DNA of 53,901 nt from Promethearchaeota archaeon. Lineage in GTDB: Archaea; Asgardarchaeota; Lokiarchaeia; Sigyniarchaeales; SOKP01. A program made the translations under genes and the position numbers. A model generated the notes under the pieces. That model was not told the DNA's origin and did no database searches. It was given only the letters and a program-made list of their open reading frames with translations. Below are positions 174 to 3,860 of this stretch, piece by piece (the first letter of the stretch is position 1; the number at the start of each line of letters is the position of its first letter). The DNA lies in contig JAUVXW010000032.1 of the NCBI GenBank assembly GCA_030603385.1, forward strand, positions 1 through 53,901, read 5' to 3'.

Positions 174-758
174 TTATTTTTTTCTCCATTTAGTCAGATA
201 GACTATTAAAAGAATTATTCCTATCGGAATACCAAATATAATCAGTATCCACATAAACGTTAAGAACCATGATGCTACCCAATAGGTATACGATCGACTA
301 CCAAATTGCGCATTGTAATTCCCATCCACTGCGATATAAATACAATATGCGATGAACATAAAGAAGCCAAATCCCCCTCCGCCACCCCAAGTTTCTGCTT
401 TTTGTTTTTTGCTCTTCTTTTCTCTGTCTTTAAACTCTTGTTTTTCTTCTTCTGGCAATCTTCGCCACCATAAATAGCCACCTAGTCCAAAGAATAATCC
501 TGATGGAACTCCAACAAATAGAAGCTCCCATAGAATTATAAGTATATAGAATCCAACTACATAATTCAAAGTCCACTCATTAAATGTCCATTTACCTTGT
601 CCACCAAGAGGAGATGTTTCTATAAACCAAATTAATACTAACAGTGCTCCAACAAATACACATATTCCCGCTATAATCATAACAAGCAGTGCTTTCTTAT
701 GCTTTCGAAGCTTCCCTTTCCAAAATGCTTCATCACTTATTTCTTCATTCTCACTCAT
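174..758 (-). CDS. Hypothetical membrane protein (about 4 TM helices)
   Basis: 194 aa ORF; hydrophobic helices separated by a charged loop and a GGGGGFG motif. Confidence 0.8.
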   Translation of the reverse strand: MSENEEISDEAFWKGKLRKHKKALLVMIIAGICVFVGALLVLIWFIETSPLGGQGKWTFNEWTLNYVVGFYILIILWELLFVGVPSGLFFGLGGYLWWRRLPEEEKQEFKDREKKSKKQKAETWGGGGGFGFFMFIAYCIYIAVDGNYNAQFGSRSYTYWVASWFLTFMWILIIFGIPIGIILLIVYLTKWRKK

Positions 759-953: not shown

Positions 954-2633
954 GTGATTAATATCGCTGTTACTTTTATGAGGAAGTTAGAACTAGAACC
1001 AGATACTTATGATGAGAAATTTACAGTCTTAACAAAGGGGGTTAATGTTGAAGTCAAAGATTGGGTTTTGGAACGGATTGGAACATCCAAATCTATATTG
1101 GAAGTAGGATGTGGGACAGGTGCCCTTGCTGTTAAGATGGCACAAAAAGGAAATGACGTTCTAGCAATAGACAAAAATTTTCAAATGATTAATACTGCCA
1201 TGAAGAACTATCCTTCTGAGAAAGATGTAAAATTAATATATCAAATAGGAACTATCAGAGAATTACCCGCTGTTGAGAAATCTAAAGATATTATTGTTAG
1301 TACATTCATGCTTTCTGAGCTTAGACCTTTTGAACAGCAAATCTTTCTTAGAAGTGCATGGAAAGTATTGAAACCAGGAGGTAAATTAATAGTTGCTGCT
1401 GAATTTATCCCCTCAGGATTTTGGAAAATAATATTTAAAATAAAACGATGGTGGTATAAGAAAAAATTGAGAAGACTTCGATTACCAAGCACTTCACTAG
1501 TGAAATGGTTTTTTAATTATATAGAACCTATAGGATTTAAAATTAGTACTGAAACAAAATGGAAACGGGGATCAATTAGAGCTCTGGAATTAGAAAAAGT
1601 TGGGAATTCAAATGGAGATGAACTAGGATATTATCGCCCACCACAAAGAAAATTTAAGGGGATTCAAGGACAAGTGCAAATATATAAATGTATTTTTACA
1701 GGACAAGCTGATCATATTCCTATTGAACCAGGAATTTATCAATCAGGAAAACCAGATGAAAAATCACCAATTATCGTAACAGCGAATTACATTTATACCT
1801 ATATTAAAGTCATGAGATCTCTTAAAGGAATAGATGCCTGGGTATTATGTGTAGATTCAAGAGGAATAAATGTTTGGTGTGCTGCACGAGGGGATGATTT
1901 TGGCAACAAACAACTCATTGAGGCAGTTGAAGCAACCGGAATCGACAAAATAACAAACAGAAAAACATTGATCCTCCCACAACTTTCAGCTGGGGGTGTC
2001 GCAGCTCCACTGATCTCCAGTGAATCACCTGATTTCCCATTCAATATACTCTATGGTCCCGTGTGGGCTAAATATTTACCCAAATACTTAAAAGAACGTC
2101 CTGCGAAAAAACCGGATAAATGGAAGCTGGCAAGATTTACCAGTTCTCATCGATTAAGAGCATTTATAACACATACGACATTTTTACTACGTAAAATTTT
2201 CCTCTGGCCAACAGTCATTTTGCTTCTGCTCCTTTTAGGCCTAAGTTTTATTAATACCTTTTGGATTGGTAAATTTTGGAGAGTAGGGGAGATTTGGCTT
2301 TGGATTGCCCTTGCTAATTTTTTAATAGCATCCCTATTCCCCCTTACGAATTTTACACGGAAGTTTCTTTTTAAAGGAATTTTCTTTGGGATTTTAAATT
2401 TGTTATTTCTTGGTGGAATAACTTGGGTACTCCATCATTCACTACTATTAATTATATGGAACTCGTGTTTCTATTTTTGGCTTGCATTCTTCTCAACCAT
2501 GAGTTTTAGCGGTTATTCAATGACTACTAGCCCCGCCGAGATCCAACAGGAATATCCAATTTTCAGGAAAATTCATCTTCCATTGTTATTCATTGGCTTA
2601 ATTACAGTTACTTTCGGATTTATCTTCTTCTAA
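954..2633 (+). CDS. hgcA: Fusion: class I SAM-dependent methyltransferase + HgcA-like corrinoid membrane protein
   Basis: The N-terminal part has ILEVGCGTG (SAM motif I) and LKPGGKL. The centre has EPGIY..G.P...SPIIVTANY, GINVWCAARG (cap helix), LILPQL and YGPV. C-terminal TM helices carry MSFSGYSMTTSPAEIQQE, resembling the HgcA NFTG.T.YTS.SGV..E motif. An HgcB-like gene lies downstream. Confidence 0.85.
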   Translation: MINIAVTFMRKLELEPDTYDEKFTVLTKGVNVEVKDWVLERIGTSKSILEVGCGTGALAVKMAQKGNDVLAIDKNFQMINTAMKNYPSEKDVKLIYQIGTIRELPAVEKSKDIIVSTFMLSELRPFEQQIFLRSAWKVLKPGGKLIVAAEFIPSGFWKIIFKIKRWWYKKKLRRLRLPSTSLVKWFFNYIEPIGFKISTETKWKRGSIRALELEKVGNSNGDELGYYRPPQRKFKGIQGQVQIYKCIFTGQADHIPIEPGIYQSGKPDEKSPIIVTANYIYTYIKVMRSLKGIDAWVLCVDSRGINVWCAARGDDFGNKQLIEAVEATGIDKITNRKTLILPQLSAGGVAAPLISSESPDFPFNILYGPVWAKYLPKYLKERPAKKPDKWKLARFTSSHRLRAFITHTTFLLRKIFLWPTVILLLLLLGLSFINTFWIGKFWRVGEIWLWIALANFLIASLFPLTNFTRKFLFKGIFFGILNLLFLGGITWVLHHSLLLIIWNSCFYFWLAFFSTMSFSGYSMTTSPAEIQQEYPIFRKIHLPLLFIGLITVTFGFIFF

Positions 2634-2697
2634 ATTATAAAATAGTAACATAAATATGATAAAATATATTATTTAATCAAAGCGTTAAAAAAAGGAT

Positions 2698-3003
2698 GTG
2701 TTTAAAATAGCCCTAAAACCATCTTCAATTAAAATATCAATAACTCTTCCAAAAATATCAATTGATCCAGATCTATGCACTGGTTGTGGAATCTGTGCAG
2801 AAATTTGCCCTTTTGGGATCCCTCAACAAAATAATAATGGGAAATTTGTAATTTATGAACCCGAAAGATGCACTGAGTGTAGTGCATGTAAAAGAAATTG
2901 CCCTGCAATGGCGATTCTCCTACAAGAGCGTAAAGGGTGCGGTTGTTTATGGGATGCTCGAGCTCGATCTAAAAATCCTCAGAGTAATAGTTGTTGTGGA
3001 TAA
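2698..3003 (+). CDS. hgcB: HgcB-like 2[4Fe-4S] ferredoxin
   Basis: CTGCGICAEICP and CTECSACKRNCP (cf. HgcB CMECGAC..NCP), then GCGC and C-terminal SCCG (vicinal Cys pair). Starts 64 bp after the hgcA-like gene. Confidence 0.85.
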   Translation: MFKIALKPSSIKISITLPKISIDPDLCTGCGICAEICPFGIPQQNNNGKFVIYEPERCTECSACKRNCPAMAILLQERKGCGCLWDARARSKNPQSNSCCG

Positions 3004-3014
3004 GAAACCGGTTT

Positions 3015-3860
3015 TTAATAATAGCTTCTTTTCTTTTTTTCTTCAAGATAACTTTTTTTGATTAAATGATCCATTTCTGCGTTTAACCAACATAATTCAT
3101 CATAACTACATGATGAATGAAACACTTCCTCTGCTTTTCTCTTAATATCTTCAATAGATGGCATTTCTAGGCTCATCTTTTGAATTCTCTCGCTTAAAAT
3201 CCAGCAGAGTTCGTCATACGTGTAACCTTTTTGAGATAAGTAGTATGCATCTTCTCTTATTTGAGTTTTAAAGTCTGCTTCTTCTACTTCTTCTATAACT
3301 TCTTCTTTTGGTGTAATTTCTTCGACTGGAGCTGTATCCTTAGGTTCTTCTTCAGTAGGGACTTTTTCAAGTCTAACAAATTTGACAGCTTTGGTGACTT
3401 TTTCCTCCATTTGTTTTGACTTGAATTTTCTATGTTCTTTGATCTGTTGAAGCCATTCTACTATCCTTGTCTCGACTTTAATTTCTCGTTCTTCGGGAGT
3501 TCCATCAAGTCTAATAGATTTGATGCTTTCAGGACGTACCTCAAATACAAATTCTGGTCTTCTTTCAATTGTTTCACCAGGAATTAAACCTTTTTCTAGA
3601 TTATGCATCATCGCTAAAAATGAACCATATTCTCTTTTTTCTTTCATGATGAGTATTTTTGTAGATCCACCACGTTCTTTATCTAATTTTCGTGCAATAT
3701 CAGCAGTGATATCTTTTTTTTCTTGGTGAACTTTCAGTCCAACCCAAATATATATTGTATTTTTCTCTTCATCATCCACAAGATTAACATCAATTTCCTC
3801 GAAGGATAACTTATCTAATTTGATTAATTCTCCCTTTTCACTAATTTTATATAATCGCAT
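3015..3860 (-). CDS. Gelsolin-domain protein with C-terminal duplicated YDELCW motif
   Basis: DVNLVD...IYIWVG...A..L..ERGG...E.RE...F matches a gelsolin repeat. An acidic linker is followed by two ...YDELCW..(S/A)E repeats. Confidence 0.75.
   Translation of the reverse strand: MRLYKISEKGELIKLDKLSFEEIDVNLVDDEEKNTIYIWVGLKVHQEKKDITADIARKLDKERGGSTKILIMKEKREYGSFLAMMHNLEKGLIPGETIERRPEFVFEVRPESIKSIRLDGTPEEREIKVETRIVEWLQQIKEHRKFKSKQMEEKVTKAVKFVRLEKVPTEEEPKDTAPVEEITPKEEVIEEVEEADFKTQIREDAYYLSQKGYTYDELCWILSERIQKMSLEMPSIEDIKRKAEEVFHSSCSYDELCWLNAEMDHLIKKSYLEEKKKRSYY

Follow-up and report, generated by a model that had tools for sequence, protein, structure and literature searches.

The window analyzed in this work, a stretch of 53,901 nucleotides (nt) from a Promethearchaeota archaeon, carries near its start two adjacent genes. 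The first encodes a protein of 559 amino acids (aa) in which a CpaM-like class I S-adenosylmethionine (SAM) methyltransferase is fused to an HgcA-like corrinoid-binding and transmembrane (TM) region, and the second encodes an HgcB-like ferredoxin. On a balance that tips slightly in favor of this reading, the two genes specify a three-module, membrane-anchored, corrinoid-dependent methyl-transfer system from the CpaM-linked (HgcAB-like) branch, with a soft metal(loid) as the most likely methyl acceptor. The coupling of the SAM methyltransferase to the corrinoid protein is well supported by gene architecture, since a split pair of CpaM and HgcAB-like genes is present in the same genome and triple fusions are found elsewhere. 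The association between CpaM and HgcA-like corrinoid proteins is already catalogued by NCBIfam. New here are the alternative fusion point, the separate ferredoxin with a thiol tail, the distinct cap-helix signature and scores that lie below the cut-off of every family.

An initial annotation of the window had proposed the fusion and a ferredoxin gene 64 bp downstream. The open reading frames (ORFs), Pfam and NCBIfam agree on this arrangement, and the motifs quoted (ILEVGCGTG, SPIIVTANY, GINVWCAA with Cys309, LILPQL, YGPV and MSFSGYSMTTSP) are all present (Table 1). Pfam assigns Methyltransf_25 to aa 48-143 (E 2.8e-16) and CdhD (PF03599) to aa 242-346 (E 1e-14) of the fusion, and the corrinoid domain gives sequence matches to the C-terminal domain of the large subunit of the corrinoid iron-sulfur protein (CFeSP). 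The predicted TM helices span about aa 397-433, 435-460, 471-494, 497-521 and 527-558. The membrane domain contains MSFSGYSMTTSP..EI..EY, and MSFSGYSMTTSP aligns with the segment nftG..t.tslsgv.kEm of canonical HgcA. The ORF begins with GTG at 954, a plausible start because the residues that precede Met9 (A-V-x-F/Y) are conserved in archaeal and bacterial homologues. For the same reason, the ATG at 978, which would agree with the 551 aa of many homologues, was dropped as the start.

Table 1. Features of the fusion locus in the window (positions in nt; residues in aa).
Feature	Position	Strand	Basis or detail
Unknown glycine-rich membrane protein, upstream	174-758	-	
Fusion gene, CpaM-like methyltransferase and HgcA-like corrinoid/TM region, 559 aa	954-2633	+	Single uninterrupted ORF, stop codon included
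CpaM-like class I SAM methyltransferase domain, aa 1-215	954-1598	+	NCBIfam CpaM (NF043040), aa 7-213
Motif I, ILEVGCGTG, aa 47-55	1092-1118	+	Within the methyltransferase domain
Linker, aa 216-250, with conserved helix (consensus RC..TGQ.D)	1599-1703	+	Alignment of fusions
HgcA-like corrinoid-binding domain, aa 251-395	1704-2138	+	PF03599
Cap helix, NVWCAARG	1869-1892	+	Cys309 codon at 1878-1880
HgcA-like membrane domain, five predicted TM helices	2139-2630	+	AlphaFold2 secondary structure; alignment to canonical HgcA across the TM region
Intergenic spacer, 64 nt, between fusion stop codon and hgcB-like gene	2634-2697	+	Coordinates
HgcB-like 2[4Fe-4S] ferredoxin gene, 101 aa	2698-3003	+	NF040864, 55 bits (cut-off 99)
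GCGC (Cys81, Cys83)	2935-2946	+	Ferredoxin
Terminal CC (Cys99, Cys100; protein ends CCG)	2992-2997	+	Ferredoxin
Gelsolin-like gene, downstream	3015-3860	-	

The window belongs to a draft metagenome-assembled genome (MAG) of 58 contigs with 7% contamination, a setting in which an assembly or gene-calling error could have joined two separate genes. The chance of such an artefact is negligible, and it was rejected, given that the same stop-free, full-length frame recurs in independent genomes, closed chromosomes included. Among 400 genomes of the Asgard phylum, 165 have a match at E <= 1e-30, and in well over 100 of the 400, including closed single-contig assemblies, the match is full length (residues ~1-559) with no stops. 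Within the family of the window the fusion is matched in 103 of 134 genomes, and the frame is also read in hundreds of metagenome contigs. The linker is conserved and the structural model is confident across the junction, so that the continuity expected by the initial annotation is borne out.

A search of a clustered protein database returned 397 matches. The best 120 of these, drawn from MAGs with the labels Promethearchaeota, Thor-, Hod-, Hermod- and Heimdallarchaeota, are nearly all 550-560 aa long with both domain types (a few are partial); those that have a name carry no annotation beyond 'methyltransferase domain-containing protein'. The closest named record, from a Promethearchaeia MAG, is 96% identical. 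The architecture, first noted in an Asgard archaeon, is indeed widespread in this group but is not specific to it: it is found in Anaerolineae/Chloroflexota, in one Poribacteria MAG and in unclassified bacteria, and the Desulfobacteraceae have a triple fusion that includes the ferredoxin. In line with the view that the architecture had not been characterized, no paper describing a CpaM-HgcA fusion was found in a search, with partial literature coverage, for CpaM with corrinoid proteins and for fused hgcAB with a methyltransferase.

The residues expected for SAM and corrinoid binding are retained. In an alignment of 17 diverse fusions, down to 27% identity, the methyltransferase domain has invariant G52, G54 and G56 (the GxGxG SAM motif), D112 and E122, with D73 nearly invariant. 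In the corrinoid domain the cap-helix residues N306, V307, W308, C309, A310 and A311 are invariant, and G313, F316 and P342-Q343-L344 are invariant or nearly so. The sole cysteine of the methyltransferase domain is that of GCGTG and there are no candidate arsenic-binding cysteines, which makes a direct, ArsM-like mechanism unlikely.

The full-length fusion is confidently modelled by AlphaFold2, from a 63-sequence alignment, as one compact unit with five long C-terminal helices (predicted local distance difference test, pLDDT, 92.4; predicted template modelling score, pTM, 0.88). The linker helix comprises model residues 228-240, and the pLDDT dips to ~73 only around 211-220. Foldseek ranks the HgcAB integrative model 9a0b_A first and class I methyltransferases next; the close methyltransferase folds include phosphatidylethanolamine (PE) N-methyltransferase, Coq5 and ChlM. 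A sequence search of solved structures matched no HgcA-type protein. Docking of the methyltransferase domain against the corrinoid domain gives a score of 0.37, against 0.01 for the best control, with passes at or below 0.60 being more often wrong than right in the calibration of the docking mark (reached by 58 of 80 solved complexes and by 2 of 110 mismatched pairs). Contact agreement among the runs is at least 73% and partner pLDDT at least 75, and a contact between the two domains is weakly suggested by these models.

The fusion is homologous to known families and stands apart from each of them. The NCBIfam curated cut-offs are 180 bits for CpaM (NF043040), 275 for HgcA (NF040863), 285 for HgcAB-like (NF043039) and 99 for HgcB (NF040864), and all four models score below them. 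The CpaM model reaches 141.2 bits over nearly its full length (positions 3-214 of 216) and is by a wide margin the best NCBIfam family for the N-terminal domain, the next scoring 54 bits; the initial assignment of this domain as CpaM-like is thereby upheld. The equivalent domain of a related fusion (P0135) passes the cut-off with 211 bits, and the co-encoding with an HgcA-like corrinoid protein that is expected of CpaM takes here the form of an in-frame fusion. The HgcA model matches aa 254-551 with 168.4 bits, up to position 318 of 325, whereas two control proteins (P0141 and P0144) give 367 and 429 bits. The C-terminal multi-helix TM domain is homologous to that of HgcA, as indicated by the extent of the profile match, the five helices and the match to 9a0b_A. 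On the other hand, the HgcA cap motif N(V/I)WCA(A/G/S)GK is altered: the fusion reads NVWCAARGDD, with RG replacing GK. This RG is constant in the fusion clade of the window and in the Thor-type clade, and GG is found in the other fusion clades. The HgcAB-like model gives 174 bits at model positions 14-251 of 350 only, the ferredoxin being a separate gene.

Phylogenetic analysis separates the fusion from canonical HgcA. Trees of the corrinoid domain were rooted on eight Asgard CdhE sequences and built with FastTree and, on smaller sets, with IQ-TREE. Canonical HgcA is monophyletic without the fusion (support 99/94 and 99/93, and 100/100 with the TM region added). The fusion clade of the window (99/95) has a Thorarchaeota-type fusion clade as its sister (92/91), and all fusions plus the HgcAB-like proteins form one clade with support of 90/81 (LG+G4) or 95/87 (LG+C20+F+G4). 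This group was named the CpaM-linked clade after the first tree was seen. A tree of the corrinoid and TM regions (299 columns) recovers canonical HgcA and the fusion clade at 100/100 each. The trees place the corrinoid domain of the fusion firmly outside canonical HgcA and likely inside the CpaM-linked clade. Consequently, the claim of a complete HgcA-like region stands for the corrinoid/TM layout, but the protein is not a canonical HgcA, and the profile and tree checks that had been proposed indicate homology to HgcA while grouping the fusion with HgcAB-like paralogues. Lin et al. (2023) placed Asgard sequences in a 'fused HgcAB' subtree, with the first 327 alignment columns trimmed as poorly aligned; the methyltransferase domain goes unmentioned.

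These comparisons bear directly on whether the system is a true mercury methylase, that is, a functional HgcAB orthologue with built-in methyl loading; these Asgard archaea would then produce methylmercury. In favor of this explanation are the full HgcA layout, the N-V-W-C cap helix and the homologous TM domain, and the partner ferredoxin keeps the positional equivalents of HgcB Cys73 and Cys94/95. Among representatives of 50%-identity clusters, the fusion clusters rank first, all with NVWCAARG, and the next neighbors are canonical HgcA (NVWCAAGKGT), together with a few HgcAB-like proteins and more distant fusions with NVWCAAGGGH; the approximately unbiased (AU) test also leaves a clade with canonical HgcA unrejected. 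The missed cut-offs for HgcA and HgcB, the RG or GG in place of the canonical GK, the well-supported separate clade of canonical HgcA (99-100%) and the position of the fusion in the CpaM-linked clade (95/87) argue against it, as do reports that two fused HgcAB proteins of the wider group do not methylate Hg (PMC5893877, PMC10083202). We consider this explanation unlikely; Hg(II) methylation as a side reaction is possible.

In the genome of the window, which encodes CdhE and CdhD, no match reaches the HgcA or HgcB cut-off. Among the 400 Asgard genomes, the HgcA cut-off is passed in one and the HgcAB-like cut-off in 80, many of the latter passes being triple fusions of 597-672 aa. The sole canonical HgcA (locus L167, G397:C110:1082-2017; 436 bits) is from a MAG with 9% contamination, on a contig of 3.5 kb, and could be a contaminant introduced by binning.

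The coupling of the modules is best seen in their alternative arrangements. The modules occur as [CpaM][HgcA-HgcB], [CpaM-HgcA][HgcB] and [CpaM-HgcA-HgcB], and some bacterial loci have [CpaM-HgcA] with no ferredoxin seen nearby; this recurrence upholds the Rosetta-stone argument of the initial annotation and gives it more weight. In the same genome as the fusion, contig C35 (L001:800-2541) carries a cpaM gene of 213 aa (240-249 bits) and, after 8 nt, an HgcAB-like gene of 363 aa (376 bits). The CpaM gene is directly upstream of the HgcAB-like gene in five of five loci, with an overlap of 4-8 nt in the three that have gene calls. No CpaM-type gene was found in 41 canonical hgcA loci (303 kb examined). 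This linkage to HgcAB-like but not to canonical hgcA loci is a character independent of the tree and in agreement with it. Given the strongly supported branches of the trees, the modules must have fused or split independently at least twice.

Besides the main comparison, an ORF of 94 aa and unknown family is located just upstream of the cpaM pair on C35 (L001:337-621). The triple fusions, with open frames of 597-672 aa, include L062:4965-6770 in the Asgard family f19 and L114 and L120 in Desulfobacteraceae; they span several Asgard families, among them Thorarchaeota-type genomes that also hold the two-gene form.

The fusion and the HgcAB-like system co-occur in the genome of the window and in 17 of 18 other genomes of its genus that have the HgcAB-like system. 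In view of this co-occurrence, the two systems are probably not redundant and would have distinct roles.

The ferredoxin provides the third module. Its gene follows the fusion gene on the same strand, and the two probably form one operon: in related loci the same-strand pair is kept with a spacer of 5-65 nt, and a same-strand ferredoxin is downstream of the fusion in 41 of 47 loci checked. The protein has two CxxCxxCxxxCP motifs, GxGC (as GCGC) and the terminal CC, and it reads CTECSAC where HgcB has C(M/I)ECGAC. All 41 fusion-partner ferredoxins have GxGC after the second cluster, in every case as GCGC; 39 of the 41 end in CC, and their second cluster is mostly CTECSAC. Canonical HgcB from 29 named loci has GxGC in all 29 (as GVGC, never GCGC), the terminal CC in 26 and CMECGAC in the second cluster. 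The fused tails of HgcAB-like proteins have none of the three features (0/15 for GxGC, GCGC and terminal CC). HgcB Cys73 and Cys94/95 have been described as crucial for Hg methylation in published work. By its motifs, the system is a mosaic, sharing CpaM with the HgcAB-like group and the thiol-tailed ferredoxin with canonical HgcAB.

In the mechanism that we propose, the HgcB-like ferredoxin would pass low-potential electrons to the corrinoid bound by the HgcA-like domain, which would be reduced to Co(I). The fused CpaM-like domain would then bind SAM and methylate Co(I) to CH3-Co(III), the lower ligand being Cys309 in the cap helix. Subsequently, the methyl group would be transferred to a thiophilic substrate held by the thiols of the ferredoxin GCGC and C-terminal CC, at the face of the membrane domain. 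Every chemical step is proposed by analogy with HgcAB from Pseudodesulfovibrio mercurii ND132 and from the conserved residues, and the identity of the acceptor is a proposal as well. In purified ND132 HgcAB, SAM methylates Co(I) and is the methyl donor, as the initial annotation had noted (PMC11588087).

An alternative role of the methyltransferase domain is that of a MetH-like repair module, which would only rescue Co(II), the catalytic methyl group coming from a Wood-Ljungdahl methyl-pterin or from a methylated substrate. MetH is an established precedent, the presence of CdhD and CdhE in the genome implies methyl-pterin chemistry, and a dedicated ferredoxin for reductive activation is encoded. 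However, in ~60 loci no conserved domain or gene for a methyl-pterin:corrinoid methyltransferase (MeTr/MtrH-like) adjoins the fusion, the maintenance of the 1:1 fusion across phyla suits a step that takes place in every turnover, and SAM is the catalytic donor in the sole HgcA-type enzyme studied (PMC11588087). The repair role is quite improbable in our judgment.

The identity of the acceptor is approached through gene context. At several Promethearchaeia loci, a divergent ArsR and sometimes DUF166 precede an ACR3-like permease, which is directly upstream of the fusion on the same strand. The permease matches the arsenite efflux family over its full length (TIGR00832, 265 bits against a cut-off of 283). 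In the Thorarchaeota-type clade, ~30% identical to the window protein, five of eight distinct loci have ArsR directly upstream in the same orientation, so that two deeply divergent clades of fusions show a link to ArsR/SmtB. At other related loci an ArsR/SmtB regulator occurs with an FMN-reductase-type flavoprotein. An ArsR and arsenic-gene neighborhood has also been reported for canonical hgcAB, and the context of the fusion parallels it. From this context (ArsR, ACR3), arsenite or antimonite is our best guess for the acceptor. The more specific proposal of a cobalamin-dependent, ArsM-independent arsenic/metalloid methyltransferase, using SAM via a Cys-ligated methyl-corrinoid together with ACR3 efflux and common in anoxic-sediment Asgard archaea and Anaerolineae, is doubtful.

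Several points weigh against the proposed metal(loid) methyl-transfer system. The window locus has no ArsR or ACR3 neighbor, on a contig that starts 953 nt upstream of the fusion. The arsenic-type neighbors come from related lineages, so that their counts overstate independence, and ArsR/SmtB regulators sense non-arsenic signals too. The AU tests do not reject the fusion clade joined to canonical HgcA (p 0.25 and 0.33). Hg methylation is reported to be absent in the two HgcAB-like proteins that have been tested (PMC5893877, PMC10083202), and canonical HgcAB uses SAM without a methyltransferase domain (PMC11588087), from which it follows that Co(I) can in principle be loaded without the fused domain.

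The substrate could also be other than a metal, with the system acting in the methylation of a membrane lipid, a quinone or a natural product, or in corrinoid reductive dehalogenation, and having no metal(loid) role. Among the nearest methyltransferase folds are some with lipid, quinone and tetrapyrrole substrates (PE N-methyltransferase, Coq5 and ChlM), a substrate in the membrane could be presented by the essential TM domain, dechlorination of CCl4 by HgcAB is reported in a 2026 preprint, and many loci have MarR or no metal-type neighbor. MarR regulators adjoin the fusion in 15 loci of the first locus set, mostly from the genus of the window. Such a role is nevertheless improbable, since the strictly conserved GCGC and CC thiol tail of the ferredoxin and the recurring ArsR/ACR3 neighbors point to a thiophilic ion and a Cys-ligated corrinoid is thought to favor methyl transfer to electrophilic metals.

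Other neighbors of the fusion were recorded. The glycine-rich membrane protein and gelsolin-like genes that flank the window locus are syntenic with the fusion across the genus, a pattern more suggestive of inherited gene order than of a functional connection. An FMN-reductase/WrbA-like flavoprotein is directly upstream on the same strand at L049:872-1498 and at eight other loci of the genus, often with a divergent ArsR. It was considered as ArsH, and this identification was dropped because NCBIfam gives a generic FMN reductase or WrbA-like protein instead; electrons for reductive activation could enter through this flavoprotein. The ACR3-linked loci have two small conserved proteins downstream of the ferredoxin (L015:5049-5477, L093:6148-6585, L094:2165-2605, L071:7450-7803 and relatives), which match no family. 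One of them combines N-terminal CC repeats (SCCG, PCCG) with a conserved AC(A/E)C, motifs that suggest a thiol-rich metal(loid) chaperone, and the other ends in a conserved DVGC.

The relation of the system to those already known is as follows. The CpaM and HgcAB-like pair has the same three modules and lies in the same clade. It differs from the fusion system, in which CpaM is joined to the HgcA-like region and the ferredoxin, with its GCGC and C-terminal CC, is a separate gene. HgcA and HgcB from ND132 share with the fusion system the N-V-W-C cap helix, a five-helix TM domain homologous over its full length and a downstream ferredoxin with GxGC and terminal CC; the use of SAM as methyl source, demonstrated for ND132, would by analogy extend to the fusion. 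On the other hand, canonical HgcA has no methyltransferase domain and its loci no CpaM gene, and the signatures differ, with AARG in the fusion against AAGK in HgcA and CTECSAC/GCGC in the ferredoxin against CMECGAC/GVGC in HgcB. The large subunit of CFeSP (AcsC/CdhE; PF03599, NF003195) has a C-terminal domain homologous to the corrinoid domain of the fusion, but CFeSP is soluble and lacks the Cys ligand of the cap helix. Methyl-pterin supplies CFeSP with its methyl group via MeTr, and the group is passed on to the Ni center of acetyl-CoA synthase. The MetH reactivation module, TsrM and the class B radical SAM methylases offer a presumed chemical analogy, with SAM methylating a reduced cobalamin and electrons supplied by a flavodoxin or Fe-S partner, although their folds and families are unrelated to the fusion. 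MetH uses SAM for repair only.

Two questions on HgcAB are touched by these findings, namely the function for which it originally evolved and the way in which its corrinoid obtains the methyl group. A SAM methyltransferase hard-wired to an HgcA-type protein, in several fusion layouts that are independent of one another, is natural genetic evidence that SAM-to-cobalt loading is general to the superfamily. This evidence agrees with the 2024 result on ND132 HgcAB and prompts the question of the SAM-binding site in canonical HgcA, where such a domain is lacking. Reports of Asgard 'hgcA' as a mark of potential methylmercury producers may concern these paralogues and call for caution, given that canonical HgcA passes the cut-off in only one of the 400 genomes and the fusion or HgcAB-like proteins are common. 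Together, the ArsR/ACR3 context and the thiol tail of HgcB type lead to a hypothesis on the substrate that is concrete and can be tested. If true, the arsenic methyltransferase would represent a second enzymatic route to methylated arsenicals and would be a clue to an ancestral, non-mercury function of the HgcA superfamily.

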